From Mobula birostris (taxonomy: Eukaryota): DNA of 64,000 bases. Under the pieces are notes generated by a model. The model was not told the DNA's origin and did no database searches. It worked only from the letters and a program-made list of their open reading frames with translations. How positions within the stretch are numbered: the first letter of the stretch is position 1; every line of letters begins with the position of its first letter. The position numbers were made by a program, and so were the translations under genes. The stretch spans positions 30,648,206-30,712,205 of the forward strand of contig NC_092400.1 in assembly GCF_030028105.1 (NCBI RefSeq), read 5' to 3'. Below are positions 6,440 to 35,507 of the stretch, piece after piece.

Positions 6440-6907
6440 TCAGCCTCCACGTAGCCGGAGCAACAGAGAGATAGTGGTTTGTGGTCTGATGTTGTAGTCG
6501 GAGAGCAATCGCCCATCCTCCAACTGTTTGCCCTCGTAAATCAGGCGCTGCTGGTCGGGTCTGACCCCTTCCTGCCGATGGACCCGCGCTTTAAAATTCT
6601 GCACGGACTCAGAGGGCATTACGTCGTACGTCGTCGTTTTCCCCTTGTCATTCAGGAGAAATATCTGCATGGATTCCTCTTTCCTGACCAGCAACATGAC
6701 GGTGGGGCTGGGGTTGAGGTTGTAGTAGCTCAGACTTCTCTGGTCCTGCATCTCCACGCTTTGGCCATTTTGCACCATCAGACGCTGTTGCAAAATGGGC
6801 ACCTTGGTCTTTTCCTGGATTTTCATCTTGAGAGTCGACACTTGAATGGAAGGGTCGACATCAAGTTCGAAACCATCGCCGGTGATAAACCTCACCTGAA
6901 GTCTCAT
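6440..6907 (-). CDS. isg15: ISG15-like tandem ubiquitin-like modifier, copy 1 (155 aa)
   Basis: Two UBL domains ([10 protein letters not shown]... and [12 protein letters not shown]...[16 protein letters not shown]). Ends in LRLRGG then stop with no pro-peptide, as in fish ISG15. Acceptor ttctcctttctccacag lies 12 nt before the ATG, and an ISRE lies upstream. Confidence 0.92.
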
Positions 6908-7588
6908 CTTGTCAAATCGCTGTGGAGAAAGGAGAAGTGATTAGAGAGTTTTTACAACAGATGTGCATGAACTATGATGTATTAATATGGCATTGCCTAT
7001 AATATCAACATAATTAGACTATTTACAAAGATCTGTAGACAAGCGGGAAAAGACAGACCCCTCTTTCCCCAGCAGTTCTGAATGTGCGACAGGAATTTTG
7101 AGCCGCAATACTGACAATTGACGGGAGAGGGACTGCGTGAGCCGGTGGGTTTAAACATTTTTGAACTTGATCCGATTAGCGGCAAAAAAATGTGTAAATG
7201 TTACTCATTGGAACCGCAGTAAATGTGCAACTTGTTTAGATTTCTAAACCAGGACCATTCCAACCGCCGCTTAATAGGGAAAAAAATCACTTCTGTCACA
7301 TTGTGTTAATGGTGTACCGGGGAGAGCATTCGGACTTGTTGCATCACCGTCTGATATGGAGGGGCCACGACACAGGGTCAGAAAAAGCTGCTGAGGGTGG
7401 TAAACTCATTCAGCTCCATCATGGGCACCAACAGAGGGTATCTTCAAATGGTGGTACCTCACGGAGAAGGCATCGATCAGTATGGGCCTGCCGGTCATGC
7501 CCGCTTCTCATTGCTACCATCAGTTGGAGCCTGAAGTCTCACGCTCAACGTTTTAGTAACAGATGAACTAATGAACAGTATTTTTGTC

Positions 7589-7592
7589 ACAC

Positions 7593-7632
<40 letters not shown>
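7589..7632. repeat. (CA)n microsatellite in the ISG15 copy 1 intron
   Basis: Directly visible; much shorter in copy 2 (about 15801-15810). Confidence 0.9.
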
Positions 7633-7634
<2 letters not shown>

Positions 7635-8277
7635 GTATATATACTGTGTGTGTGTGCGTGTGTGTGCTATTATAATTTATATTATATGTTATGTACTGCA
7701 TTGTACTGCCGCCCCAAATTCCAAATTTATCGATTTAAATTAGTGGTGATCACCCGAATTCTGATTCTAAATCGATTCTGCTGCGAATGAACTCCATTTT
7801 ACTTTCAACCAAACATTCACCCTCCACCCCCGCTTTCCTGCATAGAAAGTGTTCACTCCTGACCCAGACTTCCCGAGTCACTGAATTCACACGCAAATTA
7901 TTGTCGTGACATGAACGAAGATTTCATGCACCGTTTTAACAAGACCGTCACTCTACATGAGCCGATTGACGGGTTTCACCGAATCGTGAGCCTATCAATC
8001 TGAGAAGCAGGAGTGGCTATTCGGCCTGCACTGCTATTCAATGATATCCCGGATGATCTTTTACCTCGCCGCTAGTTGACAACAATTTGTCGCGTATCCA
8101 TTGCCCCTTTCTGTAAAGTTAGTTTTCTACTAACTTGTTCTCGCCCCGCGTTTTGTCAGCGGTAGAGACTACATTTCCTGCCCGGTTCAGAGGATCTTAG
8201 TAATTTAAATTATATTGTCAATGTTGTAAATAGCTAGATAAAAATGAGAACTTTGAGATAATCAATTAAAGTCTTAC

Positions 8278-8660
8278 ATTCTTTGTCGACAGTACCGGAA
8301 GTCAGGACGAATCTGAAGAAAATCTGATCCGCAGCTTTTTTTCTTTGCCCTTTATTCCGCACCGATTTTCAGCTCCGGTCCGGGTAAATCAATAGAAATT
8401 CTCCAGCTGCTGCTGATCGGTATCACCGCTCCCGCAACTCTGAGTCTCTCCGCCTCCCCCGGCTCGCTTTATCTTCTGCTCCCGTTTCTGAACGTCACCG
8501 CGCCGCTGGGCTGATCTCAAGGCCCGCTGTCGCTGTGTTGACAAACAAACCAATCAGGTTCCAGCCGAAGTTTCGTTTCCGAAAAAATCCCCGCAGTGAA
8601 TTGGAAAAGCGTGCGCCCTGTTACAGGGTTCAACGCTATCGGCTGATTCACTTTCGGATT
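8278..8660 (-). promoter_or_regulatory. Promoter and non-coding exon 1 of ISG15-like copy 1
   Basis: CpG-rich. Candidate donor GTAAGA at 8277-8272. CCAAT at 8550-8554. ISRE AGTTTCGTTTCC at 8569-8580. kB-like GGGGATTTTT at 8583-8592 (minus). IRF-like GAAAGTGAAT at 8646-8655 (minus). The TSS cannot be determined from sequence. Confidence 0.75.
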
Positions 8661-12092: not shown

Positions 12093-13698
12093 AGGTGTTT
12101 GCTGTCTTGAGGAAAATTAAAGTGGAGAAATCCCCAGGACCTGACAGAGTGTTCCCTCGGACCTTGAAGGAGACTAGTGTTGAAATTGCGGGGACCCTGG
12201 CAGAAATATTTAAAATGTCGCTGTCTACGGGTGAAGTGCCGGAGGATTGGAGAGTGGCTCATGTTGTTCCGTAGTTTAAAAAAGGATCAAAAAGTAATCT
12301 GGGAAATTATAGGCCGGTGAGTTTAATGTCAGTAGTAGGTAAATTATTGGAGGGAGTACTAAGAGACAGAATCTACAAGCATTTGGATAGACAGGGGCTT
12401 ATTAGGGAGAGTCAACATGGCTTTGTGCGTGGTAGGTCATATTTGACCAATCTGTTGGAGTTTTTCGAGGAGGTTACCAGGAAAGTGGATGAAGGGAAGG
12501 CAGTGGATATTGTTTTCATGGACTTCAGTAAGGCCTTTGACAAGGTCCCGCATGAGAGGTTAGTTAGGAAAATTCAGTCGCTAGGTATACATGGAGAGGT
12601 GGTAAATTGGATTAGACATTGGCTCGATGGAAGAAGCCAGAGAGTGGTGGTAGAGAATTGCTTCTCTGAGTGGAGGCCTGTGACTAGTGGTGTGCCACAG
12701 GGATCAGTGCTGGGCCCATTGTTATTTGTCATCTATATCAATGAGCTGGATGATAATGTGGTAAATTGGATCAGCAAGTTTGCTGATGATACAAAGATTG
12801 GAGGTGTAGTAGACAGTGAGGAAGGTTTTCAGAGCCTGCAGAGGGACTTGGACCAGCTGGAAAAATGGGCTGATAAATGGCAGATGGAGTTTAATACTGA
12901 CAAGTGTGAGGTATTGCACGTTGGAAGGACAAACCAAGGTAGAACATACAGGGTTAATGATAAGGCACTGAGGAGTGCAGTGGAACAGAGGGATCTGGGA
13001 ATACAGATACAAAATTCCCTAAAAGTGTCGTCACAGGTAGATAGGGTCGTAAAGAGAGCTTTTGGTACATTGGCCTTTATTAATCGAAGTATTGAGTATA
13101 AGAGCTGGGATGTTATGATGAGGTTGTATAAGGCATTGGTGAAGCCGAATCTGGAGTATTGTGTTCAGTTTTGGTCACCAAATTACAGGAAGGATATAAA
13201 TAAGGTTGAAAGAGTGCAGAGAAGGTTTACAAGGATGTTGCCGGGACTTGAGAAACTCAGTTACAGAGAAAGGTTGAATAGGTTAGGACTTTATTCCCTG
13301 GAGCGTAGAAGAATGAAGGGAGATTTGATAGAGGTATATAAAATTATGATGGGTATAGATAGAGTGAATGCAAGCAGGTTTTTTCCACTGAGGCAAAGGG
13401 AGAAAAAAAACCAGAGGACATGGGTTAAGGGTGAGGGGGAGAAAGTTTAAAGGGAACATTAGGGGGGGCTTCTTCACACAGAAAGTGGTGGGAGTATGGA
13501 ATGAGCTGCCAGACGAGGTGGTAAATGCCGGTTCTTTTGTAACATTTAAGAATAAATTGCACAGATACATGGATGGGAGGTGTATGGAGGGATATGGTCC
13601 CTGTGCAGGTCAGTGGGACTAGGCAGAAAATGGTTTGGCACAGCCAAGGAGGGCCAAAAGGCCTGTTTCTGTGCTGTAGTTTCTATGGTTTCTATGGT
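12093..13698 (+). mobile_element. 5'-truncated, relatively young CR1 LINE
   Basis: Long open RT frame and the CR1 3' end with a (TTCTATGG) repeat tail. Absent from unit 1. Confidence 0.92.
12317..13450 (+). pseudogene. CR1 ORF2 reverse transcriptase domain (truncated, frameshifted near the C-terminus)
   Basis: Motifs QHGF, DFSKAFDKV, GVPQGSVLGPLLF and KFADDT. Confidence 0.9.
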
Positions 13699-13963
13699 TA
13701 AGTGAGGTAAAAGTAACACAGTGGGGAATAGTGACAGTTAAACTTCAATATTTGCTTCGGATTAAATAGGAAAGAATGCAGAATAGCTAACATAATGATT
13801 CCATTGGGTAAAGTGTTGAATGTGAATTGGGGTTTTTGAGAATCTTGTGCATGGTTCAAACACCACAATCAAACTTCGGTCAAGATACTTCATCTCTTAC
13901 CAGGGTCTATAGAACTAGATGAAAGCAATCACACAGAAATGCCAGTGTTCATGCCTTTAGACT

Positions 13964-13969
13964 TTTATT
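13964..13969 (-). terminator. Putative polyadenylation signal of ISG15-like copy 2
   Basis: AATAAA on the minus strand at the position paralogous to 5765-5770. Confidence 0.55.
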
Positions 13970-14649: not shown

Positions 14650-15117
14650 TCAGCCTCCACGTAGCCGGAGCAGCAGAGAGATGGTGGTTAGTGGTTTGAT
14701 GTTGTAGTCGGAGAGCAATCGCCCATCCTCCAACTGTTTGCCCTCGTAAACCAGGCGCTGCTGGTCGGGTCTGACCCCCTCCTGCCGATGGACCCGCGCT
14801 TTAAAATTCTGCACGGACTCAGAGGGCATCACGTCGTACGTCGAGGTTTTCCCCTTGTCATTCAGGAGAAATATCTGCATGGATTCCTCTTTCCTGACCA
14901 GCAACATGACGGTGGGGCTGGGGCTGAGGTTGTAGTAGCTCAGACTTCTCTGGTCCTGCATCTCCACGCTTTGGCCATTTTGCACCATCAGACGCTGTTG
15001 CAAAATGGGCACCTTGGTCTTTTCCTGGATTTTCATCTTGAGAGTCGACACTTGAATGGCAGGGTCGACATCAAGTTCGAAACCATCGCCGGTGATAAAC
15101 CTCACCTGAAGTCTCAT
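14650..15117 (-). CDS. isg15: ISG15-like tandem ubiquitin-like modifier, copy 2 (155 aa)
   Basis: Intact ORF ending in LRLRGG. Six amino-acid differences from copy 1 (S20A, N65S, T92S, I123V, R141K, Q143L). Same acceptor 12 nt before the ATG. Confidence 0.92.
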
Positions 15118-16475
15118 CTTGTTAAATCGCTGTGGAGAAAGGAGAAGTGATTAGAGAGTTTTTACACCAGATGTGCATGAACTATGATGCATTAATATGG
15201 CATTGCCTATAATATCAACACAATTAGACTACTTACTAAGATCTGTAGACAAGCGGGAAAAGACAGACCCCTCTGTCCCTAGCAGTTCTAAATGTGTGAC
15301 AGGAATTTTGAGCCGCAATACTGACAACTTAAGGGGGAGGGACTGCGTGAGCCGGTAAACTTAAACATTTTTGAATGTAATCCGATCAGCGGCAAACAAA
15401 TGTGTAAGTGACATTTGTAAATGCACATGTGTAAATGTGCAACTTGTTTAGATTTCTAAGCCAGGGCCATTCCAACTGCCGCTTAATAGGAAAAAAATCA
15501 CTTTTGTCATATCGCTTTAATGGTGTACCGGGGAGAGGATTCGAACTTGTTGCATCACCGTCTGATATGGAGAAGCCACGACAAAGGGTCAGAAAAAGCT
15601 GCGGAGGGTGGTAAACTCATTCAGCTCCATCATGGGCACTAACAGAGGGTATCTTCAAAAGGTGATGACTGAAGGAGAAGGCATCCATCAGTATGGGCCT
15701 GCCGGTCATGCCCGCTTCTCATTGCTACCATCAGCGAGGAGTCTGAAGCCTTACGCTCAGCGTTTTAGGAACACATGAACTAATGAACAGTATTTTCGCT
15801 ACACACACACGTATATATACTGTATCTATATGTGTGTGAGTGTGTTATTATACTTTATATCATATGCTCTGCACTGCACTGTGCTGCCGCCACAAGCTGC
15901 CAAGTTTATCGATGTAAGTTAGTGGTGATCACCCCAATTCGGATTCTAAATCGATTCTGCTGAGAATAAACTCCATTTGACTTTCAAACAAACATTCACC
16001 ACAATCCCCACCCCCCCTCGCTCTCCTGCACAGAAAGTGGTCACTTCCGACCCAGACTTCCCGAGTCACTCATTTCACACGCAATTTATTGTCATGACAT
16101 AAGCGAAGATTTCATGCACCGTTTTAACAAGACCGTCACTCTACATCAGCCGATTAACGGGTTTCACCGAACCCTGAGACGATCAATCTGAGAAGCAGGA
16201 ATGGTCATTCGGCCTGCACCGCTATTCAATGATATCACGGATGCTCTTTTCCCTCGCCGATAGTTGCCAACATTTGTAGCATATCTATTGCCCCTTTCTG
16301 CAAAGTTACAAACGTTTGTAATTTTCTACTAACTTGTTCTCGCCCCGCGTTTTGTCAACCTTAGAGACTACATTTCCCACCCGGTTCAGAGGATCTTAGT
16401 AAGTTAAATTATATTGTCAATGCTGTAAACAGCTAGATAAAAATGAGAACTTTGAGATAATCAAATAAAGTCTAC

Positions 16476-16860
16476 AATTTTTGTCGACAGTACCGGAAGT
16501 CAGGACGAATCTGAAGAAAATCTGATCCGCAGCTTTTTTTCTTTGCCCTTTATTCTGCACCGACTTTCAGCTCCGGTCCGGGTAAATCAATAGAAATTCT
16601 CCGGCTGCTGCTGATCGGTATCCCTGCTCCCGCAACTCTGAGTCTCTCCGCCTCCCCCGGCTCGCTTTATCTTCTGCTCCCGTTTCCGAACGTCACCGCG
16701 CCGCTGCGCCGATCTCACGGCCCGCTGTCGCTGTGTTGACAAACAAACCAATCAGGTTCCAGCCGAAGTTTCGTTTCCGAAAAATTCCCCGCAGTGAGTT
16801 GGAAAAGCGTGCGCCCTGTTACAGGGTTCAACGCTATCGGCTGTTTCACTTTCGGATTCC
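16476..16860 (-). promoter_or_regulatory. Promoter and non-coding exon 1 of ISG15-like copy 2
   Basis: ISRE AGTTTCGTTTCC at 16767-16778. kB-like GGGGAATTTT at 16781-16790 (minus). Consensus IRF element GAAAGTGAAAC at 16843-16853 (minus). CCAAT at 16748-16752. Confidence 0.75.
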
Positions 16861-17787
16861 GGGAATGACACAACAGCTGGAAGCCGAGAATGCGAAGCCG
16901 GATCTGGACTGAATATAACCTTAAACGTGTCATCTCTGAATACAATTACGTGGTTCATGAAATGACTACGTAAGTGATAAAATGTAACACAAGAAAACAA
17001 TTGTGCTCCATCCACAGCACCTCTATTTCCCCACCTCTGTCGCCCATCTCCCCGAGGACAGAACCGAAACAGTGTGTACCCCCGGACCTTAAGCTTCACC
17101 CCATCTATGCTTTGTGACGTGCACCATCTCCAACGTGAGCCCAGCACCTGCCGTACATCCCGCTCTCCACTTCTTTCTGCTTTCGGCATGGAGCCCTCTC
17201 TCTGAGACTCCCTGGTCCTCACATCTCTCTTGCTCCTGCCCACCTGCACTTTGTAACGGTAGGATGTGTTACAGTTGACCTCACCAGTGCTCACCCAGCC
17301 CCCATCACCAACCAGGGCGTCAAATAAGGAAACCCAAAGGAATTCTACAAATGCTGGGAATCTTGAAGAAAGCACAAAAGATGTTGGGGGGGGGGAACTC
17401 AGGAGGTCGGTTAACATCAAAGGAGGGAAATGAACAGTCCATGATTCAGTCCAGATCCTTCATCAGGATTGCACAGGAAACCAGATTAAGAAGAGAGGGG
17501 TAGGAATGGGGAGGAGGGGGTATAAATTGGTGAGGAGGAGACTGGATGGGTGTGGGAGTGGGGATGATGTGAGAAGCTGGGAGGTGATAGCTGGAAGAAG
17601 TATGGGGCTGAAGGAGAAGAAGAAATCTGATAGGAAAGGACAGTGGACCATGGAAGTAGATGGGGAACCACAGAGGTGATGGGCAGGTCATGTGGGTGGG
17701 GGAGGAAAGTGGTGAGAGGATTACTAAACTGGGGAAAACAACTAAAGGGGGGGATCCACAGGGGAGTGGGTACCTACCAGAAGTTAG

Positions 17788-18944
17788 TGTCACAATGGGG
17801 GCATTGAGAACAGATCCAAATGTGAGACACAGACACTGAAGTACAAGGAACAGGACTTGACTAGAGTAGGGACGTGACAGGATACAGACAAGGAGCAGGG
17901 ACAAGAACGCAGACAAGGAGCAAGGACAAAAACGCAGACAAGGGCCAGGACATGGACTAGACAGGGAACCTGGACAAGGAACTATGAACAAGGAGCCTGT
18001 GCTTGGAGTCCGAGCCAGAGCCTGGACAAGGACCTAGAACCTGGGTCTTGCCTCGGGCTCTGTCCCCAGAACCAGGCAAGGACATGACATGGCTACAGGA
18101 CAGGACGTGGCTGGGGTCTTAGTTCTTGAGTCTTGAGGCTAGAAGCTGGGGACTTAGAATGCGGAGGCTGATAACTCAGAGGCTGGAGCTCAGAGACAGA
18201 CTGGGAACTGTACATCAACATAGAGCTAGGACTTATCCATCGAAAAGCCAGGACTCATCTTTAACATGACACCAATACAAGACTGGACAGTACATTGACA
18301 TAGAACCAGGACTCAACTTTACCTCCACACCAAGGTGGGACAGGTCCACTTGCTGGGTAATGGCAGAACAGCCAGACTTACCCAACAGAGGCGAGGACAA
18401 GACATAACAAGACAGGACCCCCCACAGGGCAACGGCAGAATGGCCTGACTTACCCCATAGAGGCGAGGACAAGAAGAGACAAACACCAAAGAACAACAGA
18501 CAGTTTCTTCTCTGCATCGGGGTTGCTCCGAGTCGCAGTTCAGCCAGCAACCTCAGCTGGCTACGGAAACAGCCAGATCCCTACCTAGCTCAGAGCGGCT
18601 GGCAGTCACTCAGCTGGCATGGGAAACAGCCGAATCCATACCACAAAGACAGCTCCGACTGCCGACAGCAGGGCTCCATGAAGCGATGGTTCTCCAACAT
18701 GGCCTAAAGATGACAAGTAGCCGCTCTAGCCTTCCACCAGCAGATTGCTCCTAGGAAATCTTGACAAGACAAACCAGCAGCTCACACTTGAGCCCAAGGC
18801 TACTTATATTCCAAGCCCCAAGATGGGAATCAGGTGCCTATGAATAACTCAAACAAAACAAGGGACAGCTGGAAGACCCGGAATCCTGAGTCCACGGACC
18901 GGACTGTGAACCGGAATGTGGACTTTACGGACCGGACCATGACA
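17788..18944 (-). mobile_element. Solo LTR, about 1.16 kb, unit 2 only
   Basis: TGTCAC...ATGACA termini and a 5-bp TSD GTTAG (17783-17787 and 18945-18949). Internal short tandem repeats. Related to 41880-42646. Confidence 0.8.
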
Positions 18945-21099
18945 GTTAGAGGTTAATGACTACTCAGACAGAGTATGAGGTGTTCCTCCTCCAACTTGTG
19001 TTTGGCTTCATCGTGGCAGTGTCCTGAGCAGTTTTTCCAGGTGAGCCGGGCATCCACATCCATCTCCTATGGTCTTGTTTATTGTATCAAGTGCTTCCGA
19101 TATGACATCTTCTACATTGGTGAGACCAGTGCAAACTAGGCCTTCCTCTCTTACCAGATTCCTTCATCTGCAGTCCTTTATCGCCTCCAGCCATCACCTC
19201 CCAGCTTCTGTCCCCATGTCCACTCCTCCTTCTTCCATCTGCCTATCATCCCTTCTCACCTGGATCCAGTTTTTGGTCCACCCCTTCCCCTCACTTCTTA
19301 ATATTGGCCATCTCTGTTCTGCCTTTCAGTCCAGATAAAGAATGTCACATTGACTGTCCATTTCCACCCATAGATGCTGCCTGACATACTGAGTTCCTCC
19401 AGTATCTCTTCTGGAGCTTCACATTTATCAAGTTCTGAGTTGATTGAGAAGTTTCCATGTTGGAAATTCCTGGGACCCTACACCAGCGGCACAAGTGATT
19501 TGCAGTGAGACTTACCTCACTTTCCCACTCTTTGGTGCTCCTGTGGTCAAGATAAATGGAATGACTCCATCTATCTTCCCTTCTGCTTATTCCTCTGAAA
19601 CACTGAACAGATGTAAATGTTCATTTCCGGGACTTGGTCACTTTGTCAGATTGTACTTGTTCTGTTGTGAAAAAGTCACCAGAGAGACACTAAAGTTTGT
19701 GGATATAGAAGTGTTTTATTCAACAAAAACCAGCAGCAGGCATCATATTGAGACACTTTTGTAAGAGGAGGCCTGCTCGACCCAATATTACATGACATTT
19801 TATATGCTGAAGATCAAAGGTAACAACACAGCAATTCTACCATTTCAATGTATGTACAATACTTCCTTTTGAATTACATATAGTTATCACACGCCATCTC
19901 CTTTGCACCCACACTCCAGATACCCAAAATGAATATTAAACTCCACTGACTCTCGGCTGCATTCATGCATATGCAGGCTTCTGAGGTCTGATTGTTCTGA
20001 GCTGTGCCTTAAATTCAATCTACAATCCACATTCAAGTCTGAAGATTAGTTGCTGGTGAAATTAATATTTGCCAACTTCAGAATACACCCTAACAGTACT
20101 CCTTTAGAGAGTCATTGCAATTCAATGCAGAAATGGCCACCATGTCCATACCAACCACTAAGCTCCGATCTTATACCCATCCTACACTCATCCCTTGTTT
20201 ATTTCATAGGACCTTGTGTGGGAGACCCATATCTCATTCATTAACAAAAAGTCTTGGCAGAGAATGTTGGTAAGATGTTCTTACCCAAAATCTATTGGTG
20301 CAATTCTTCATAGAGAGCATCCTCACATCAGCCATTACTATCTGGTTTGGTGCAATACAGAAAAACTACAGCCAACTGTCAGGTCAGCAGAAAACATTAT
20401 TGGCTGCAGTCTACCAACAATGCAGGGGTCGTATGTGTCCAAAACAAAGAAACAGGCGGAAAAAGTCATTGTGGATACTTCCCACCCAGCAAACGTCCTT
20501 CATTTGTTTGCTTTGATTATGAGAAGATTGGAGTGCAGGAGTAAAGATGTCTTACTCATTTATTTAGTACCATTATTACACCACAGCTGGAGTATTACGT
20601 AGACGATTATCTCTTTAGACAAGAAAGAAAATACATGCTATTGGGGTAATGTGGTGAAGATCAACTCGACTACCTTCTGGGATAGGGAGTTTACCAGTGA
20701 GTATTTATAGGCAAGAAATGAAGGCCCAGAGATGGTCTGTCCTGAGGTTGGAGGCCAGTCTAACTGTGTGAGTGGGTGTGAAAGGGGACTGTTTTGCTTT
20801 TATTGTTGCTGTTGCTACTTTTACTGTGCAGATGAACATTGGTAATTTGTGGGCTGCCCCCAGCACATCCTTGGGTTATGTTGCATGATAACACAAATGA
20901 CACAGTTCACTGTATGTTCCAAGTACATGTGATAAATAAATTTGAGTCTGAAGTCTGCAATCTCCAGACATCAGCAGAATGAAAAGTGACCTCATTTAAA
21001 GTTACCGATTCCTACTGGCCTTGGCAGTTTGTATGCAGAAGGGATGTTTCCTCTGGCTTAGGGCTTTAGAATCTGGGGTCACTGTCTCAGAACAAAGTC

Positions 21100-22185
21100 A
21101 CTTGTAAAAATGCCATCCTCTTCTCTCAATTCCAACACCTCTGCCCGCGCCTGCTCTCAGGATGAGGCTTTTCATTCCAGAAAAAATGAGATGTCTTCCT
21201 TCTTTAAAGAAAGGGACTTCCCTTGCTCCACCATCAATGCTGCTCTCACATGCACCTCTTCCATTTCATGCATGTCTGCCTTCACCCATCCCCCTGCCAC
21301 CCCATGAGGGATAGGGTTCCTCTTGTTCTCACTTACCACCCCATCAGCACAAAATTTTCCATGATTTCCGCCATCTCTAACAAGATTCCACCACCAAACA
21401 CATCTTCCCTCACCTCCACTTTCCACTTTCTGTAGCGATCACTCCCTATGCAATTCCCTTGTCCACTCACCCCTCTCCACTGATGTCCCTCCTTGTACTT
21501 GCCTTTGCATGTGGAACAAGTGCTACACCTACTCTAATGAGGCACTATTCATGGCCCTTTCCAGGGGAGGCGACACATCACCTTGACTCTGTTGGGGTCA
21601 TCTACTGTATCTGGTGTTCCTGGAGTGGCCTTCTGTACATCGGTGAGACCGCTTCACCGAGCATCTATGACCCATCTGTTGGAAAAAGCAGGATCTCCTG
21701 GTGGCCCCCATTTCAATTCTACTTTCCAATCCCATTCCGACGTGTCAGTCCATGGTGTCCTCTACTGCTGCGATGATGCCACACTCAGGTTAGGGGAGCA
21801 ACACCTTATATTTCATTTGGGTAGCCTCCAACCTAAAGGCATGAACATCAATTTCTTGAACTTCAGGTGGTAATTGCTCCCCCCCCCCCGCCCCCGCTTC
21901 ACCATTCCTCATTCCCATTTTCCCCTCTCACTTTATCTCACCTCGCTCTGGTGCTCCTCCTCTTCCCTTTCTTCCATTGCTTTCTGTCCTCTCCTATCAA
22001 ATTCCCCTTCTCCATCCCTTTCCCTCTTTGATCTATCAGTTTCCCAGCTCTTACCTTCACCTCTCTCCCTCTCCCAGTTTCACCTATCACCTACCACCTT
22101 GTACAAACGTTTGTACTTCTTCCTCCCCTCCCCCCACCTTCTTACTCTAACTTCTCATCTCTTTTTTCCAGTCCTGATGAACAGT
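21100..22185 (+). mobile_element. Penelope-like element 3' fragment (GIY-YIG endonuclease remnant)
   Basis: Peptides GVIYCIWCSWSGLLYIGET and LRLGEQHLIFHLGSLQPKGMNINF, followed by a pyrimidine-rich terminus ending CCAGTCCTGATGAA. Confidence 0.8.
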
Positions 22186-22249
22186 CTCAGCAATTTTGGA
22201 CCCCGCCATATCTTCATCTTGGAGTATGACCATCCCACTTCCCCAGAAG

Positions 22250-22727
22250 GTGGTGAATGGCACAGCACATCACACAAACCAATCTTCCATCCTTGGACTC
22301 ACTTTACACTGCACACCGTCGGAGCAGTGCTGCCAGGATATTCAAGGACACGGCCCACCCAGCCAACACACTTTTTGTCCCTCTTCCCTCCGGGAGAAGG
22401 CTCAGGAGCTTGAAGATTCATATGGTCAGATTTGGGAACAGCTTCTTTCCAACTGTGATAAGACTGCTGAACGGATCCTGACCCAGATCTGGGCCATACC
22501 CTCCAAATATCCGGACCTGCCTTGGTGTTTTTTGCACTACCTTACTTCCAATTTTTCTATTTTCTATTTATGATTTATAATTTAAAATTTGAATATTTAC
22601 TATTTTTAATATTTATTATTTGTAATCCAGGGAGTGGGAAGCGCAGAATCAAATATCGCTGTGATGATTGTACGTTCTAGTATCAATTGTTTGGCGACAA
22701 TAAAGTATAATGTATAAAGTATAAAGT
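22250..22727 (+). mobile_element. Rex1/Babar-like 3' end
   Basis: Highly similar to 11650-12092. Ends with AATAAAG and a (TATAAAG)-like repeat tail. Confidence 0.7.
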
Positions 22728-24069
22728 AGCACTGCCCCAATGCTCCCTGTCCTTCCTCTTACTTGCCACACCAGCTGAGAAGGACAAGCTTTGTGGCTTA
22801 CAAGGAATGGACAGCATGCAAAAAGAGCTGGCAATCCCTGAGGAGCATTGTCCAAGGCCACAGATCAATACCCTTTCATTGTTCCAAAGGGAGCCAACGC
22901 TGTGTACCAAATCCCCTTTTGGACCCCACCATATCTTCATCTTGGAGTGTGACCATCCCACTTCCCCCAGAAGGTGGTGAATGGTGATGACAGAATCACA
23001 AGAGGGAATGGCTCCCCACACCGCCCCACTGCAGCAAAATGATCCCCCAGGCTGCTGTTCTCAAAACAGGGGAGCACTTTGTGCGGAGATGAACCTCTGC
23101 TGCTTGACTGACACAGGTAGAAGACACAGGCAGTAGCAGTGAGAGTAGGAAGTACTAGTGGTGGGGACTTGCTGAGTGAACAGGATATTCAGCGCCTTTT
23201 TCTAGTTCCCAGCATATTGTACCGGAGGATACAAAGTCAGCATCAAATAGAGAGTGGTGACGTGGACCAGGTAACGAGAGGGTTTAGGGTTTGGGCACTT
23301 GTAGAGAAAGAAGTGAAAATGATGGGATCAGAATGAAGCAGAGTGTGAGGGATGTGACAGGCATGCCACTGTGAGAAGGGTTTGTAGGTGGTAGAGGAAG
23401 GGAAATCCTATTCTTTGAAGAAGGGAGATATCTCTGATGCTCTGCAGATCTGTTCCTAGGATGAGGCTTTCCTCTCCAGAACCTTGGAGATGTCTCCCCA
23501 CCCCTACTCAACACAGGGATCGGACTCTCCATTATCCTATCTCCTCCAAGCTTCTCACCTCATTCCCTTTCCCCCTCACCTTATAGCTTGCATTCCTCCC
23601 CCTCCCCCAATTTATTATTCTGCATTATTCCCATTTCTTTCCAGTCTGGGCCCCAAACATAGGCTGTTTATTCCTCTCCATAGCTGCTGCCTGACCTGCC
23701 GAGTTCCTCCAGTATTTTACCGTGTGTTGCTCTGGATTTCCAGCATCTGTAGACTCTTGTGTTTAGACTGAGCCTCAGCAATGTGAAGGTCGATTTTAAT
23801 TTCATACGCACAGGTGCAATGAAAAACTTGCGCAGGCACAAAGTACAGACAGGGACAGGAGAGGAACAGTGAAGAGGACAGGGCCCCTGAACAGTGGGTG
23901 GAGGGATTCAGACTCTGACATACAAGTAAGTTCATTTTGAGATGCGAGACGTGTTTTAGAGGAGGGCAGTTTGCCCCGTGGGTTGGAATGTTATTCCGGG
24001 TGTCTGAATAACTAGAGCGAGAGTCTGAAGGAAAGATGCTTTTTAAAAATAAAAACAAGTGATCAGCGC

Positions 24070-24300
24070 ATATTGAGTCAGCATTGATGGGGCCAGGAAA
24101 AGCGATGGAAAGAAAAGGAACCGAAACTACGGCGTTATCCACTGAAATCGAAATGGGCGCGGTGCTGCCATTAATCAGCTCGAGCGATGACAGCCAACCA
24201 GAGCAGTGACGTGCATAAAATGTAATGTACCGGCAAATTTCACCATATTAGAATAATTTGAAGGCGGGGCTGGCGACCGGCTTATAAGGAACTTCTCAGC
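24070..24300 (+). promoter_or_regulatory. OASL promoter
   Basis: AP-1 TGAGTCA at 24074-24080. ISRE-like GGAACCGAAACT at 24117-24128 and GAAATCGAAA at 24144-24153. TGACGT at 24207-24212. GC box at 24262-24270. TATAAG at 24283-24288. Confidence 0.75.
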
Positions 24301-24356
24301 GGTGGAAGCAAGAAGTTTGGACGCCGCCTGTGAGGAAGAACGTACGCTCAGTAACG

Positions 24357-24527
24357 ATGGCGCTACACGAAATAGACCCCAAGAAACTGGACGACTTCAT
24401 TAAAAAGAACTTGGAGCCAAGCGGGTTTAATGTCGAGGTGAGAGAGGCCATGAACAGGATCTGCGAGTTTTTAAGAAATCAGTGTTTCACCAAACAAACC
24501 GACGTTAAAGTGATCAAAGCCGTTAAG
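24357..24527 (+). CDS. oasl: OASL exon 1 (coding part)
   Basis: [21 protein letters not shown]...KVIKAVK. Start context acgATGG; donor AAG|gtgagt. Confidence 0.9.
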
Positions 24528-27500: not shown

Positions 27501-30500
27501 ATTCTGAACTAAAGGAGCAGAACAAAGCTCCACCATGTTAATCCTGCACACAAAACATATGCTGGCTATGTTAAACGTGATTTCAATTCTAATTCTGGGA
27601 ATGTTTGAAAACAACAATAATTAGATGTGTAACTTTTTTTTTGTTGACAGGGTGGATCATCAGGAAAAGGAACAGCTTTAAAAAATAGCTCAGATGCAGA
27701 TCTCGTCGTCTTTCTCAGTTGCTTCAAAAGTTTCCAGCACCAGAGAGACACCAGGCATGAAATTCTTGAGGGAATTCAGGCAATGCTGGATAAATATTCT
27801 CAAAGCCTTGCATATCAAGTCGATAATATCAATATCAACATCATAAAGCAAAGTACCACATCGCCAAAATCTCTGAGCTTTGAGCTGCAATCAAAGAAGA
27901 GTTCAGAGACCGTGTCGTTTGATGTTCTGCCAACCTATGATGCATTAAGTAAGAATTAATAGCAATGATACGTTGACTATAATTAATAGTAATGTTACAT
28001 CTCAAATGTAATTTTAATTCTTCTGTCACTGCTTCTGTGGATAGGCGGTTTGAAAGGAGCTTGTCTGATTTGCTCTCTTCAGAGTCTTATTCTGAGTCAA
28101 GTTGTTGCTGCTGTTGTTGAGGAAGAAAATGCACTCAGTGACCATTTTATTCAGTACTTCCTGTAATCTTGGCCTTCTGCTGCTGTAGCCCATCCACCTC
28201 AAGTTTCGAAGTGTTGTGCATTCACAAATGTGCTCCTGCATGGCTCTGCTATAACACAAGGCGATTGAATTACTGTCACCTTCCTGTCAGCTTGAACCAG
28301 TCTGGCCATTTTCCTCTGATGTCTCATTAACAAGGAGAGTTCACCCACTGAACTGTGCTCACTGGACGTTTTATCTTTTTTAATGTATTCTAAGCCATCT
28401 CTAGTGACTATTGTACATAAGAATCCCAGGAGATCGGCATTTTCTGAGATACTCAAACCACCCTGTCTGGCACCAACAATCATGCCACAGTCAGTCACTT
28501 AGAATGCATTTCTTCCCCATTTGGATGTTTGGTCCAAACAACAACTGAACCTCTTGACCAGGACTACATACTTTTGTACATTGAATTGCTGCTATGTGAT
28601 TGGTTGATTTGATATTTGCATTAACAAGCAGGTGTACCTAATAAAGTGGCCACTGAGTGTAGATTACAGTTCACTTTTTGTCTGTATATGGCACAGAAGA
28701 TCCTTTCATAGGAGAAATAACAAGGAATATTAACCCTAAATGTTACTGATATTGCTTTACCACTGACATTAAACCAGTTTGATAACAAAATGAATTCCAG
28801 GGGAAATCTTGGGTAGCAAGTCTAAAACTTGCTCTTAAAAGATAATATCTGCCTTTTTCCTTTCCTTTCATAAGAAAGGGATTCATTTTCTTGGCCACTC
28901 TTACCAAGATGCAAAAAGCATTAGGCATTACCTTGGGTTAAATTTACAGGTGATTCTTGGCAGAAATAGAGTCACGGAACACTACAGCACAGAAACAGGC
29001 CCTTCAGCCCATCTACCCCATGCTGAACTATTATTTTGCCCAGTCCTATCAACTTGTACCTGGACCACAACCCTCCATACCACACCCATCTATGTATCTA
29101 TCTGAATTTCTTTTAAATGTTGAAATTGAACCCACAGCCATCATTCTGCTGGCAGCTCATTCCACACACTCACAACCCTCTTGTGTGAAAAAGTTCCCCC
29201 AAATATTCCCCTTAAACCAGGGGTTCCCAACCTGGGGTCCACAGGCCCCTTGGTTAATGGTGCATGACATAAAAAAGGTTGGGGACCCCTGCCTTTAAAA
29301 AAAATTGCTTCTCAACTTTAAACCATAACCTCTATTTCTAGTGTCACCCAACCTCAGTGGGGAAAAAAGCCTGCTTGCTTTTACCCCATCTATACCGGTC
29401 ATTATTTTGAATACCTCTATCAAATCTCCCCTCATTCTCCTTTGCTTGTTATGCAAACTTCAGCAAACTCTTTCTGGGAACCTTTGGGATGGTGGAAAAT
29501 ATCCTGAGGTTAAATAAACTGGAGTGAATCCAATAGAATGGCCTGTTTGGTCTTGGAAGTGATACTTGACCAGATATTAATCAATAGTCTTTTGACCATG
29601 TTCTCATTCATCATTTTATTTCTTGCAGCACCACTGCATAATACAAGCAAAGCACATCTCGAACTAATCCAATTTGCAAACAATAACGAGATGACAGATG
29701 GAGAATTTTCTGCTTGTTTTACGGAACTTCAGAGATCATTTGTGAAGCAGCAATTTCCAAAGGTTAAAGACTTGATTCGCCTGCTGAAATATTGGTACAA
29801 GGAGGTGAGTGACGGAAGAAAGTGATAATGGTTAATCATTGAAAGCCTATAGAAGGGTTGTTGTATCAAACCTAAAATGCTATCTTCCTTTGATATCTCA
29901 GATTACACCTTCTTCCTCTTTGGCATTTCCTCAGGATCATGGAGTAAGTGTGTCCCTAGTCCAATGCATCAGGTTCTCAATACAGTCTTGAATATCCCTT
30001 CTCCAAGTTTGAATGGTTATGGACCGAAGATCCCCAGAATCTTTGGGGATGTTGCTATTTGCTTTTGTCTGCCAAGGACCTGCCCAATAGCCAATGCAGG
30101 AAACCCATGAGATACCATTGTATGTTTGTTGGTAGAACACAGCTCTCCAATGAAATCACTGACTTCCATGGTACAATTTTGGATTGAGTCCCTAGTTTCC
30201 AGAGTATCCTCCCAGCATGCAACCTGCTTCAGGCTAGAAATGGTCAGAAAGACATTTCTAATTGAATTCAAAATTTATTTTTGATTCAATTTCTCATTCG
30301 GTTGAGATTTAACCAAAGGATGTGATGGTCCTCTCTGCTTGACTGATGGCACCACAGCACTATCAGAGATTGGACAACATGTACTCCCCAACTGACTGAC
30401 AATATACAGATCATTTCGTCATTTCCATCATTGCCCTGTGTGAAATCTTGCTTTACACAAATGGGGTACTTAAATCCAAGTCTTTTCTCTATATGTTCTT

Positions 30501-33500
30501 CTGGTACTCTCAGAACATTCATAAGGCCAAGAAAACAGGAGGAAGAGTCAGCCCATGGGAGTTTGACTTCAGGCTGTGATCGTGGCTGACCTGACCTAGA
30601 TCTCAGTGCAGATTCAGCAATTTGTGTGGTGGAGATGTTGAGATAGGGGCCACTCGGGAATGATCCCATGTAGCCATTGGTCTAGGTGTGGTCTTGGCAT
30701 GTAACCTCAGGGAGGCTGTTTCATCAGAGAAAATAATGAAGATTCGAAGTATAGAACCAAAACAGAGGGTAATGAGTGTGCTTAACATCACATTTGCTTA
30801 TTGGTGATTGTCAATAATTCTCCCTAGTATGTCAAGCCACGGAAGTCAGAGCTGAGAAATGGAGCACGACTGCCTGCAAAGTATGCCTTAGAGTTATTGA
30901 CCATTTATGCCTGGGAGGAAAGTAATCATCAAGAGAGATTTGACATGGCTGAAGGGTTCCGCACAGTCCTGGAACTGATCTGCAGATATCAGGATCTATG
31001 TATCTACTGGACTAACTACTATGATGTCAATAATGCAGTTCTTGCAGACTTCATAATCAAGAAACTCCACAACAGAAGGTAAGGTTCCCAACCACACTTC
31101 AAACTATGCCAAATAATGGGACCCTATGTTTTTAAATTGGGTTCACCTTCTGGATTCTTGTACATACAGGTCCAATAGAAAGTATTACATGGCATCACAT
31201 TCTTAAAACATAAGACCACAAGGTATAGGAGCAGAATTAGGCCATTTGGCCCATCAGGTCTGCTGTCATTTTATTATGGCTGTTTCAATTTTCCCCTTAG
31301 CCCCAATCTGCTGCCTTCACCCGTATCACCTCATGCACTGATCAGTCAAGAATCTATCAATCTCTGCCTTAAATATACATAAAGGCTTGGCCTCCACAGT
31401 TGGCTGTGGCAAAGAATTCCACAGTTTCACCACCCTTTGGCTAAAGAAATTCCTCCTTATTTCCAATCTAAAAGGACACCCTTCTATTCTGGGGCTGTGT
31501 CCTCTGGTGTTAAACTCTCCCACCATAGGAAACATCCTCTCCACATCCACTCTATCATGGCCTTTCACCATTCATTAAGTTTCATTGAGATCACCCTCAT
31601 CCTTCTGAATTCTAGTGAGTGCAGGCACAGAGCCATCAAATGCTCTTCATATGACAAACCATTCAATCCTGGAATCATTTTCGTGAACCTCCTTTGAACC
31701 CTCTACATTTCCGAAGGTAACATCTGAATGTATCTCTTAATGTTCCTCATTTCCTAACTAACCACTGTTGCCTACCTTACTGAGATGATTGACTTCAGAG
31801 TCCTCAGCCTTATTTACAATTCTCTACATCATTACAGTCTACCGTCTGTCACCTCACCATTTTTTGCCTCCTCAAGCTCTTTTAGCCAGTGTTTCTATTT
31901 CACTTTTTGGCCATTTTCCATCAGTAGTAGTATTTTCTGTCAGCTTTCTCTCACCTTATGGAGTTTTCCGTAGAGTACTTCCTCATTTCAAAGTTTGACT
32001 CAAAATCTCAGAGTACATTCCTCACATTTTGTGGATGTCCATTTCTGTTTCTGTTGTGATGGCAGATGGGGAATGTCTAGATCTGTATGCATTGTGACAT
32101 GTTTTCAGTGATACATCTGTTTGAATTATTGTTACCATGTTTGGGAATACTGTGATGATTAATGACAAATTCTGAGGCTGCGGAGGAATGGAGAGTTGAG
32201 GCCACAGACACTACCATTGTAGCGGACTAGAGCTGGGCAGGAAAGTTGATTCCTTTTTCTGCTCATTGTGCTGCCTGTGTATGGGATGGGGAATGGGGGG
32301 CTTTGATGTTCTGATGTTCCTGTCATTCATTCGTTTTTTTTAATTTTGTGGATGTCTGTGAAGAGTAAGAATTTCGAGTTGTGTACTGTATACTTTCTCT
32401 GATAATAAATTGAACAATTTTGTCATAAACTGATGGAGGATTAATGCAAATTGATCACAAAGATGGCCATTATACGCAGCGCGTGTACTGTCAGCAAATA
32501 GCTCAAAGTTCAATGTTGTCATTGGAATGGTTTTATTTTTCAGACCGATCATTCTTGATCCAGCTGATCCAACTGGAAACGTGGCTTCATCAGATGGTTG
32601 GAATGTGATGAAAGATGAGGCCAGGAAATGGCTAAGCATGCCTTGTGTCTCTAATGTTGAGGCATGGGATGTCCAGGTAAGAGTTTGAATAATTGATTTT
32701 CAGATATAAGGGAGTGGAGATACATTATTCTCCACTTTCTTTCACCCTGCCAGTGTCTGGCTACTGATAAACATCCCAGACTGCCTCTGCCCAGGGGATA
32801 TGCTACAGTCTGTCGCAGGCCTTCTGATTTTGCACTGCTTGAATTGTCCTCTATGGTAATTTGCAGTCTTTGGTGCTGAAAACCAGTCACCTTACCTCAC
32901 TATGTTGCACATTATTGGGTGGAGTTTCGAGCTAAGCAAGGTCCTGGTGAAGATGACACATGTATTACGTGCAGATTTGAATGCCTTGTGACATGGTTCT
33001 ATTTCATTATCTAGGTTAATCATCCTAAATGTTTAAAGCCTAACCATTTTAAAATACAGTTGATTACTACGTAATACACAACCGAAGCAGGGGGTGACCC
33101 AGCTTTTGGGGTCTTGAACTGTGGATTTATACAACATGTTTAATATTGGAAAAAAACTTCTTGAGGTGGCAATCTTATTGAAACCCCTCAAATATTGAAA
33201 GGGCTAGACTGTGGACGTGGAGTGGATGCTTCCTACAGTGGAGACTCTAGGACTAGAGGCCAAGCCTCAGAATAGAGGGACATTCATTCAGAATGGCGAT
33301 GAGAAGGAACTTCTGTAACCAGAGGCTGGTGAATGTGTGGAATTCATTGTCACAGACAGATGTGGAGGCCAAATCACTTAGTGTATTAAAAGAGGAGTTT
33401 GATTGGTTCTTGATCAGTCAGGGCGTCAAAGGTTAAGAGGAGAAAGCAGAAGTATGGGGTTGAGAGGGAAAATATATCAGCCATGATAGAATGGTGAAGC

Positions 33501-35507
33501 AAACTCAATGGGCTGAATGGCCTAATTCTGTAGCTATGTCTTATGGATTTAAGTTTTCAATGATGTGTTTGGGAAAGCTGATCAGCAGTAGTATCTGGGG
33601 CTGTGGAGGAATGGGCAGTTGAGGTTATAGACATAACTATTTTACCCAGGTCAAGCCAAAAAAGTTCAGTTCTGGTTGATTTCTTTTTCTCCTACTCCTT
33701 GTGTTCGATTCACTAAGTTGCTTGACGACAACTGGTAGAAATGATTATAGAATTCAACAGAAAAACTGAGTTACAACAAGTGAAATTAACAAGTATCTAA
33801 CCTGTAACTTGATGATCACACCAAAGTGGGTTCCTTTTTTGATTGTATCTTCAGCTGTGTAACATTAATGAGACGTGGTTTAATATCACAGGCACATGTC
33901 ATGAAATTTATTATCTTTGCGACAATGCAGTACATAATAGAGGAAAAAATGAACTACATTATGTGTGTGTGTATATTATATCTTAAATAGTTGAATTAAA
34001 TAAGTAGTGCAAAAATGAAAGTTGTGGTGTAGTTTTCGTGGCTTCAATGTCCATTCAGACAGGAAGAAGTTGTTGGGTGTGACCTTCAGGCTTCTGTACC
34101 TCCACCCTGATGGTAGCAATGACAAGAGGGCATGTCCTGGGGAGGAGGTTCTTTAACGAAGGACGCCACCCTTCTGAGGCATCGTTCCTTGAAGATGTCC
34201 TGGATACTACGAAAGCTAGTGCCCATGATGGAGCGGACTAATTTTACAACTCTGTGCTGGTTACCTAATCCTGTGCAGTAGCTCCCCTCCCCCACACCGC
34301 CCATACCAGACGGTGATGCAGTCAGCTAGAATGCTCTGTCGAAATTTGCAGGTGTTTTTGGTGACAGGCCAAATAGTGGAGAATGGAGCTCCAAATGAAC
34401 AGCAAATCAGAGTTGTCTGCTGATTGAGACCATGATATACAAGATATTAAGAGGAATAGATAGAGTGGACAGCCAACGCCTCTTCACCGGGGCACCACTG
34501 CTCAATACAAGAGGACATGGCTTTAAGGTAAGGGGTAGGAAGTTCAAGGGGGATATTAGAGTAAGGTTTTTTACTCAGAGAGTGGTTGGTGCGTGGAATG
34601 CACTGCCTAAGTCAGTGGTGGAGGCAGATACACTAGTGAAGTTTAAGAGACTGATAGACAGGTATATGGAGGAATTTAAGGTGGGGGGTTATTTGGGAGG
34701 TAGGGTTTAAGGGTCGGCACAACATTGTGGGCCAAAGGGCCTGTACTGTGCTGTACTATTCTATGTTCTATGACAGCCTACTCTGCACTATTCTAGCTCG
34801 TATTCCCACAGCACGCATCCACCCTCACTTCAGCCTTTGCAATTTATTCCACAGAGTGCTCTTGGTGCAAGTGTAGTTTTGCACACTAACGACACCCATA
34901 ACTACCCTTCAAGTTGTCGTTTCCCATCTCCCTCTTTTGTTTTCTGTCGCCTCTGAAGTATAAAAGGAACATATTTTACTTCTGCCCATTTTTGTTTTGT
35001 TTACCTCAGCCAGTGAAGACATTCCAAGTCACGGTCACGACCCTGAATGGTAACTCGTTACAGCAAAATGCCAGCATTTACAACAAGGTCTCTGAGATCA
35101 AACGTGGCATCCAGGAAAGGTGGAACATCCCAGCTTTTAAGCAACGCCTGCTATTCAAAGACACCATTCTGGATGATAGGATCACCTTGCTGGATGCCAA
35201 GATCTTCTTTGATGCAGAAATCCAGCTGCTCACCCTGAGTGTAATGGAGATATTTGTCGGGATAGACGGGCGTAACCTGACGATCCAGGTTTTGCCAAGT
35301 GACAAGGTTTCAAGTTTAAAAGCTGAAATTGAATCCCTGGAGCGAATTCGGCGAAGCCAGTACTATTTAACTTTTCAATCAACGCCGCTTGAAGATGAAC
35401 GTACACTGCAATCTTATGGCATTAAGCAATATTCTACCATCCTTGTCAACCTGAGAGTGCGTGGTGGCAGCGAGATTCAACTTTCCAATGCAGAGGATCC
35501 TAACTAA
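24357..35507 (+). CDS. oasl: 2'-5'-oligoadenylate synthetase-like protein with C-terminal tandem UBL (508 aa), join(24357..24527,27651..27948,29629..29804,30828..31078,32544..32676,35010..35507)
   Basis: All introns are GT-AG with compatible phases (0,1,0,2,0), giving a 1527-nt spliced frame with no internal stop. OAS signatures: [66 protein letters not shown]. The last exon encodes two UBL domains. Confidence 0.95.
25000..25800 (+). mobile_element. L1/Tx1-like LINE 3' fragment nested in an antisense L2-like fragment (about 24750-26010)
   Basis: Peptide [15 protein letters not shown]...CDRC...LVHAVWSCP is the C-terminal CCHC region. The flanking minus-strand peptide is [12 protein letters not shown]. 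Confidence 0.65.
27651..27948 (+). CDS. oasl: OASL exon 2 (P-loop and catalytic D72, D74, D148)
   Basis: ttgacag|[22 protein letters not shown]...[11 protein letters not shown]|gtaaga. Not in the ORF track; translated by hand. Confidence 0.93.
28132..28659 (-). mobile_element. Non-autonomous Tc1/mariner element in OASL intron 2
   Basis: TIRs CACTCAGTGACCATTTTATT / AATAAAGTGGCCACTGAGTG followed by TA. Remnant HTH peptide [22 protein letters not shown]. Confidence 0.8.
29218..29291. mobile_element. Tiny hAT-type MITE (74 bp)
   Basis: TIRs CAGGGGTTCCCAACCT / AGGTTGGGGACCCCTG and an imperfect 8-bp TSD. A related decayed copy lies at about 45970-46050. Confidence 0.6.
29629..29804 (+). CDS. oasl: OASL exon 3
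   Basis: ttcttgcag|...[35 protein letters not shown]|gtgagt. Confidence 0.93.
30828..31078 (+). CDS. oasl: OASL exon 4
   Basis: ctccctag|YVKPRK...[16 protein letters not shown]...[10 protein letters not shown]...LCIYWTNYY...KLHNR|gtaagg. Confidence 0.93.
31205..31700 (-). mobile_element. CR1 LINE 3' fragment
   Basis: Peptide [10 protein letters not shown]...TRGH...[17 protein letters not shown]. Confidence 0.75.
32544..32676 (+). CDS. oasl: OASL exon 5
   Basis: tttttcag|(R)[30 protein letters not shown]...AWDVQ|gtaaga. Confidence 0.93.
34432..34771 (+). mobile_element. CR1 LINE 3' end
   Basis: Peptide [16 protein letters not shown]...TRGHGFK...[14 protein letters not shown], with a (TTCTATG) tail. 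Confidence 0.8.
35010..35507 (+). CDS. oasl: OASL exon 6: tandem UBL domains, LRVRGG and a 12-aa tail
   Basis: ttacctcag|[14 protein letters not shown]...QRLLFKD...MEIFV...[39 protein letters not shown]. Confidence 0.93.
   Translation, partial: PVKTFQVTVTTLNGNSLQQNASIYNKVSEIKRGIQERWNIPAFKQRLLFKDTILDDRITLLDAKIFFDAEIQLLTLSVMEIFVGIDGRNLTIQVLPSDKVSSLKAEIESLERIRRSQYYLTFQSTPLEDERTLQSYGIKQYSTILVNLRVRGGSEIQLSNAEDPN

Follow-up and report, generated by a model that had tools for sequence, protein, structure and literature searches.

The locus described here lies in Mobula birostris, within a window of 64,000 nucleotides (NC_092400.1, labelled C36, positions 30,648,206-30,712,205), in which positions are counted from the first letter. 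Two genes resembling ISG15, each encoding a tandem pair of ubiquitin-like domains (di-UBL), lie on the minus strand, and an OASL gene, which also ends in a tandem UBL, lies on the plus strand and is transcribed away from them. The features are listed below, with open reading frame (ORF), untranslated region (UTR) and interferon-stimulated response element (ISRE) abbreviated.

6440..6919, minus strand: coding exon of ISG15-like copy 1 (ORF 6443-6907, stop codon 6440-6442, ATG at 6907, acceptor 12 nt before the ATG)
8296..8660, minus strand: promoter of copy 1 with the region of its non-coding exon 1, placed by homology to copy 2 (ISRE at 8570-8579, next to an NF-kB-like run)
14650..15129, minus strand: coding exon of ISG15-like copy 2 (ORF 14653-15117, stop codon 14650-14652, ATG at 15117, acceptor ending at 15130)
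16494..16860, minus strand: promoter of copy 2 with its non-coding exon 1 (ISREs 16768-16777 and 16843-16853; donor GT at 16493)
16860..24080, no strand: gap separating the divergent promoters, half or more of it repeat
24100..24356, plus strand: OASL promoter and 5' UTR (ISRE-like 24117-24128 and 24144-24154; GC box; TATA at about 24283)
24357..24527, plus strand: OASL exon 1, coding (gene model, contigs)
27651..27948, plus strand: OASL exon 2, with the P-loop and catalytic Asp72, Asp74 and Asp148 (contigs)
29629..29804, plus strand: OASL exon 3 (gene model, domain matches, contigs)
30828..31078, plus strand: OASL exon 4 (gene model, domain matches, contigs)
32544..32676, plus strand: OASL exon 5 (gene model, domain matches)
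35010..35507, plus strand: OASL exon 6, holding the entire tandem UBL; its acceptor is in phase 0 and lies 12 nt ahead of UBL1 position 1
1257..1661, minus strand: homologue of the promoter and exon 1 of a di-UBL pseudogene of a second type (type B), its coding exon about 6 kb left of the window

Six-frame translation showed that both di-UBL ORFs are intact, with 155 residues, two Pfam ubiquitin matches and an LRLRGG-stop end each. There is no internal Gly-Gly cleavage site between the tandem UBLs of these proteins. The two coding sequences are 97.6% identical, with five synonymous and six non-synonymous codon changes, and the units of about 4 kb that hold them are 86% identical. The gene consists of two exons, the first non-coding, so that the intron, 1.4 kb long in the type A genes to which both copies belong, lies in the 5' UTR just before the ATG. 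Between the two copies, on the plus strand at 12275-13450, the ORF list shows a long interspersed element (LINE) ORF of 391 residues that resembles reverse transcriptase.

The OASL gene is also intact. Its six exons (24357-35507) are joined in frame by GT-AG introns and encode 508 residues, and the single ORF carries the Pfam domains NTP_transf_2, OAS1_C and two ubiquitin domains, that is, the combination of nucleotidyltransferase (NTase), OAS1_C and tandem UBL by which OASL is recognized. The P-loop is intact and Asp72, Asp74 and Asp148 are all present as the predicted catalytic residues for 2'-5'-oligoadenylate (2-5A), the synthesis of which requires three Asp residues (PMC6019448). The protein ends in LRVRGG followed by a 12-residue tail, Val replacing the second Leu of the conjugation-type motif; the avian OASL pro-form likewise has a conjugation-type end and then a short tail (PMC8764230). 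The closest named proteins to the window genes are from Mobula rays. Downstream of OASL, at 46380-48940 and 53830-55370 (plus strand), broken non-LTR (long terminal repeat) ORFs and a gag/zinc-knuckle/protease-like LTR-element remnant were read from the ORF list.

Contigs were available from sequencing runs guessed to be RNA, although no run is recorded as such and run X2 is probably DNA. They bear on splicing only, since read depth is dominated by repeats. OASL exons 1-4 are joined in one contig (run X6), and contigs of runs X1 and X4 contain exons 2 and 4; the OASL contigs begin at 24322-24335. The di-UBL contigs (X4, X6) break off at the predicted acceptor, position 15129, beyond which they carry 30 and 73 more letters, and one contig of the probable DNA run X2 ends at 16494, the boundary of copy 2 exon 1. 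The contigs support splicing of both OASL and the di-UBL genes.

The promoters were scanned with a strict ISRE pattern, GAAAN1-2GAAAC, which has a background of 45 occurrences in 564 kb (0.08/kb). In the di-UBL promoters the ISRE-type site GAAACGAAAC was found on the minus strand at 8570-8579 and 16768-16777, and copy 2 has in addition the ISRE-type GAAAGTGAAAC on the minus strand at 16843-16853. The OASL promoter of the window has only forms with one mismatch (24117-24128 and 24144-24154). In the larger cluster described below, strict ISREs are present 1.6-2.4 kb above the ATG in seven of nine di-UBL copies, all of them type A, and 257-363 bp above five of the seven OAS (oligoadenylate synthetase) copies that have exon 1; because duplicated copies are not independent, these counts are worth about two observations. 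A bidirectional promoter, which by convention has divergent starts within about 1 kb, was considered and rejected, as the starts are about 7.3 kb apart and have separate ISREs. The genes are thus divergent without sharing a promoter, and this separation weighs against the explanation favoured below. Co-induction of the di-UBL and OASL genes, each through its own ISREs, is a prediction that we rate as highly probable. Repeats, identified by matches to 700 kb of other loci, cover 50% of 16860-24080 compared with 42% of the whole window.

The first-pass annotation had described at least two intact minus-strand ISG15-like genes, a complete plus-strand OASL, ISRE-type motifs in each promoter and a gap of about 7 kb, mostly repeat, between divergently transcribed genes. 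The genes and the motifs were borne out, those of OASL with one mismatch, and the description of the gap was roughly right. The terms compact and head-to-head were overstated, since separate promoters 7.3 kb apart lie inside a 350-kb cluster evolving by birth and death. The gene observation is confirmed, and the cluster is larger than was reported: the two di-UBL genes and one OASL are part of a nine-copy di-UBL array and an eight-copy OAS cluster.

This cluster of about 350 kb contains all nine of the full-length di-UBLs among 32 genome matches (30.56-30.66 Mb of C36); seven other matching loci were examined and read as ubiquitin genes or pseudogenes. Seven of the nine copies are intact and of type A, one is a type B copy ending LRLCGG and one is a type B copy with an internal stop. 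The LRLRGG end is found in eight of nine, including both in the window. The two types differ at the residues following the QQRL motif, and the split predates these rays because Hemitrygon has both. The type B copy ending LRLCGG has an open frame (C36:30560586-30561050). The type B promoter at 1257-1661 (minus strand) has lost the ISRE and has a good NF-kB-like site beside a gamma-activated site (GAS)-like site; together with a first intron of about 7 kb, these changes hint at divergent regulation of type B.

Of 23 OAS1_C matches in the genome, 21 are in the cluster and two are in a locus decayed by stops (C21:16362675-16366083), perhaps an OASb-type remnant. The eight copies of the cluster include the window OASL and three further copies with six exons. 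Of the other four, one lacks the UBL exon, one is a fragment, one is divergent and frameshifted, and one lacks the promoter and exons 1-2. One duplication copied a whole block of about 65 kb that carries both di-UBLs and OASL. The cluster shows birth-and-death evolution, the mode by which OAS genes evolve (PMC10400998). Three OASL copies at C36:30722388-30813514 are 99.5% identical over 58 kb, which reflects either very recent duplication or over-expansion in the assembly. An assembly artefact was rejected as the cause of the array; some OASL copies may be over-expanded, yet arrays are present in three other rays. Pfam scans of ORFs in the flanks gave 6 matches in 52, all retroelement, and 5 in 125 (PLA2, INPP5/SKICH), and a Gypsy-like element with SCAN, integrase and reverse transcriptase domains lies to the right of the cluster (L064:6188-9423, minus strand). 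RefSeq labels the di-UBL genes polyubiquitin-like and its models fuse neighbours. P0257 merges both window di-UBL copies and P0121 merges three OASLs; in these and in P0265, neighbouring di-UBL or OASL genes are fused into false polyubiquitin-like or OAS3-like proteins.

Judged from their sequence, the ray di-UBLs are very probably ISG15 orthologues. The strongest evidence is a comparison by eye with a published alignment of the salmon, zebrafish and human proteins (PMC12234341). The C-domain of the ray di-UBL departs from ubiquitin at 32 positions, and at 12 of them it has the salmon ISG15.1 residue; the corresponding figure for the ray OASL C-domain, taken as a control, is 4. An N-domain insertion is also common to ray di-UBL and salmon ISG15. 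With polyubiquitin set aside, the best PDB match of the di-UBL profile was ISG15 (107-119 bits; chicken OASL UBL, 105), while that of the OASL profile was the chicken OASL UBL (110 bits; ISG15, 87-106). The di-UBL N-domain alone scored 45 bits with mouse ISG15 and 38 with ubiquitin. No other ISG15 candidate was found among the genome matches, the seven checked loci and the flank of AGRN. In line with the first-pass annotation, the genes have the appearance of genuine ISG15 and OASL. Several results weigh against the ISG15 assignment. The margins of the two profile comparisons are narrow (14 and 4 bits), the proteins are 46% identical to di-ubiquitin, and raw scores to di-ubiquitin exceed those to mammalian ISG15. 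The ESM Atlas gave no separation between an ISG15 cluster (0.94) and a ubiquitin D cluster (0.93), and the position of ISG15 F41 is Leu in the window copies; it is Phe in sharks and in type B copies. A query with the junction only gave 40-45 bits with di-ubiquitin, above the 33 with ISG15. Searches for UBA7 and RNase L returned one and two loci, which we take to be of UBA1 type and IRE1 type, and were too insensitive to judge either gene.

The possibility was considered that one ancestral exon lies behind the di-UBL genes and the tandem UBL of OASL, and this appears moderately likely. In both gene types one exon encodes the whole tandem UBL. Its acceptor precedes UBL1 position 1 by 12 nt, in phase 0, in 9 of 9 di-UBL copies and 6 of 6 OASL UBL exons. 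Furthermore, Asn7 and Tyr15 of the di-UBL, which are not ubiquitin states, also occur in the chimaera and dog OASL C-domains. In a phylogeny of the individual UBL domains, a check proposed in the first-pass annotation, the N-domains grouped with support 97/94 and the C-domains with 94/85 when ubiquitin was the sole outgroup. When 22 divergent UBLs, chosen out of 244 candidates, were added as decoys, support dropped to 71 and 36. Internal duplications that took place independently had a likelihood above that of the free tree and were not rejected by approximately unbiased (AU) tests (p 0.62 and 0.67). The trees were built without bony-vertebrate ISG15 or FAT10, and dog OASL was omitted for its long branch. 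The domain tree thus does not establish a single exon. Gene structure and position make a common origin of the two tandem UBLs likely, but phylogeny does not show it.

The principal alternative is that these are true ISG15 and OASL genes, linked since early jawed vertebrates, in which the tandem UBLs arose separately from polyubiquitin, the linkage reflecting clustering of interferon-induced genes or chance on a small chromosome. We consider this unlikely. Besides the AU tests, it is favoured by the identity of the ISG15-type and OASL tandem-UBL units, only 31-35% and lower than that of each to di-ubiquitin. In polyubiquitin genes, too, a 5'-UTR intron immediately precedes the start, and two separate inheritances could therefore account for the shared splice position. 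The identical 12-nt phase-0 offset, the Asn7 and Tyr15 states in the chimaera and dog OASL C-domains and the physical adjacency of the genes argue against this alternative. OAS-UBL has been described as ancestral among vertebrates, the UBL having been acquired before jawed vertebrates (PMC10400998), and a UBL fusion has been proposed for OAS (PMC6307210); the available texts name no donor, and the word ISG15 occurs 0 times in the main text of either paper.

A further idea is that the cluster was the birthplace of both antiviral di-UBLs through in-place duplication of one exon, that neighbours exchanged sequence and that mammalian ISG15 is a translocated mosaic copy. It must be regarded as doubtful. 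By eye, several derived residues of the human ISG15 C-domain recur in UBL2 of chondrichthyan OASL (window 35244-35468) and not in fish ISG15, a possible trace of old exchange; Asn70 and two aromatic residues at ubiquitin positions 41-42 are the OASL-like features noted. Against the PDB, the OASL C-domain scored 56 bits with full-length ISG15, and the mosaic idea is without score support because a C-only ISG15 construct reached 49.9 and ubiquitin 49.2. If the idea were true, mammalian ISG15 would combine an N-domain like that of fish ISG15 with a partly OASL-like C-domain, and OASL would be an ISG15-type modifier joined to an enzyme of its own. The loss of ISG15 in birds would then be understandable.

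Linkage in other species was judged by near-consecutive RefSeq accessions on one chromosome. In Heptranchias, a hexanchiform shark, a di-UBL (XP_067862044) and OASL (XP_067862046/47) are on the same chromosome. In Hemitrygon the di-UBL accessions 072923051-58 are followed by an OAS (072923059), Hypanus has OASL 059843979 and di-UBLs 059843993-96, and Mobula hypostoma has the near-consecutive 062890250 and 062890253. The adjacency covers one shark and three rays; Heterodontus and Pristiophorus gave di-UBL only and chimaera OASL only. By this proxy the linkage is not confined to this lineage. It is highly probable that it is older than the shark-ray split, and probable that it is older than the split from bony fish. 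The gene order around the cluster is PXMP2-like, POLE, P2RX2-like, cluster, PLA2G3-like and INPP5J-like, the first three all within 310 kb of it:

30.25-30.27 Mb of C36: PXMP2-like (Pfam family, head-to-head with POLE, general resemblance; ESM Atlas score of an exon 0.83, a lead only)
30.38-30.39 Mb of C36: POLE
30.46-30.50 Mb of C36: P2RX2-like (best match P2X2)
31.05-31.09 Mb of C36: PLA2G3-like and INPP5J-like (named from Pfam domains)

A published list for salmon gives PXMP2 as the immediate neighbour of ISG15.1 and places ISG15.2 between TPCN1 and IQCD-CFAP73; these flanks share no gene with the human HES4-ISG15-AGRN region (PMC12234341), and teleosts are without OAS (10.1101/693333). The salmon flank genes belong to human 12q24, where TPCN1, IQCD and CFAP73 flank OAS1-3. 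A teleost thus appears to keep ISG15 in the same block without OAS. PXMP2 is the only true shared ray-salmon neighbour, as PLBD2 lies 17 Mb from the cluster in the ray genome. In the ray, AGRN is on another contig (C32), and the 200 kb above that gene gave no UBL match, so the mammalian site holds no ISG15. The ray di-UBLs do not have the HES4-AGRN synteny of mammalian ISG15, and this synteny is not defining for ISG15 across vertebrates because salmon ISG15 fails it too.

Human OASL lies between HNF1A and P2RX7. Identification of the ray cluster with that locus was rejected: the neighbour best matches P2X2, no P2RX7_C is nearby, and HNF1 and ANAPC5 are 11-25 Mb away. No P2RX7_C match was found beside any P2X gene in a search that was not exhaustive, and P2RX7 may be absent or tail-less.

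Less probable than a separate polyubiquitin origin, and itself improbable, is that the tight linkage is not ancestral but arose in elasmobranchs or chondrichthyans, when genes of one ancestral chromosome were rearranged within it. The ray chromosome is indeed rearranged relative to human, with HNF1 at 5.5 Mb, a PLBD-family gene at 13.6 Mb and P2RX4-type and ANAPC5 genes at 19.8-19.9 Mb scattered away from the cluster at 30.6 Mb, and no neighbour of either human OAS locus adjoins it. Zebrafish and human ISG15 have also been stated to be syntenic, in passing and without detail (PMC5381560), a statement that sits badly with the salmon flanks. These points weigh against an ancestral locus, as do the mixed set of salmon flanks and the nature of accession adjacency, which is a proxy and not a map. 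Rearrangement is opposed by salmon ISG15.1 beside PXMP2, a gene three away from the ray array, and by the lack of a common gene between the published human and salmon ISG15 flanks. The suggestion of the first-pass annotation that an ancestral locus is preserved is partly supported. It gains from the linkage in the shark and other rays, the salmon PXMP2 neighbour and the shared splice position, while the domain tree gives no resolution.

That the di-UBLs are something other than ISG15, either a derivative of di-ubiquitin peculiar to elasmobranchs or a FAT10 relative, as their identity to di-ubiquitin, their RefSeq name and the Atlas ubiquitin D cluster could suggest, is very improbable given the 12 derived C-domain residues and N-domain insertion in common with salmon ISG15, the LRLRGG end, the ISREs, the placement of FAT10 outside the best 60 PDB matches of the di-UBL profile, the lack of another ISG15 candidate among the loci checked, and the known fact that ISG15 of fish resembles di-ubiquitin more than it does the human protein (PMC5381560).

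We therefore favour, with moderate confidence, the explanation that the di-UBLs are the likely elasmobranch ISG15, divergent beside OASL in a likely ancestral jawed-vertebrate cluster, and that the OASL UBL came from local exon duplication. An older OAS gene would have captured a copy of the di-UBL exon as its new last exon. In teleosts OAS would have disappeared while ISG15 stayed in this block. Mammalian ISG15 would have relocated to HES4-AGRN, and in rays unequal crossing-over would have amplified both genes. On virus or interferon exposure, activated IRF/ISGF3 would bind the separate ISREs of each gene. The di-UBL, made with LRLRGG exposed, would be conjugated without processing. OASL, with its three aspartates kept, would make 2-5A on double-stranded RNA for RNase L and, once the 12-residue tail was removed, might itself be conjugated as chicken OASL is.

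Among known systems, ISG15 of salmon, zebrafish and Asian seabass is the nearest to the ray genes (PMC12234341, PMC9680060). It shares a di-UBL of about 155 residues ending LRLRGG without a tail, a coding sequence in exon 2 after a 5'-UTR intron (PMC9680060), ISREs, tandem copies and, in salmon, the PXMP2 neighbour. It differs in having no OASL partner, as teleosts are without OAS (10.1101/693333), and in its intron (about 0.1-0.3 kb against 1.4 kb in the ray), and the ray protein is nearer ubiquitin. Mammalian ISG15 has the two UBLs, LRLRGG and two promoter ISREs, but is a single gene between HES4 and AGRN, unlinked to OAS genes, with a precursor tail and an intron after the ATG. Human OASL has the same domain order and, like the ray gene, a six-exon layout, but is enzymatically inactive and without LRLRGG; the ray cluster, unlike human OASL, adjoins neither HNF1 nor the P2RX4-ANAPC5 block. 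OASa.U and avian OASL share with the ray NTase, OAS1_C and tandem UBL, the three catalytic Asp residues and a conjugation-type C-terminal motif followed by a short tail (PMC10400998, PMC8764230, PMC6019448). Birds have one OASL and no ISG15, whereas the ray has several OASL copies beside an ISG15 array. Chicken OASL conjugates like ISG15, a finding presented with no evolutionary account (PMC8764230).

No description of ISG15-OASL linkage was found in the full-text literature, although subscription journals and supplements could hold one; the passages of PMC11354881, PMC6002735, PMC13030082, PMC9722776 and PMC12737575 have no bearing on it. ISG15 in gnathostomes and OASL in cartilaginous fish were known already, and what appears to be new is their arrangement, which is probably ancestral. 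The gap may exist because elasmobranch ISG15 is hidden in RefSeq under polyubiquitin-like names or in fused models. The locus bears on where OASL obtained its tandem UBL and on how ISG15 originated: the conserved physical link and the shared splice position give a concrete, testable origin by local exon duplication. It further points to the location of ISG15 in mammals as the derived state. A shared ancient pairing, likely older than the bony-fish split, would explain where OASL acquired its two ubiquitin-like domains.

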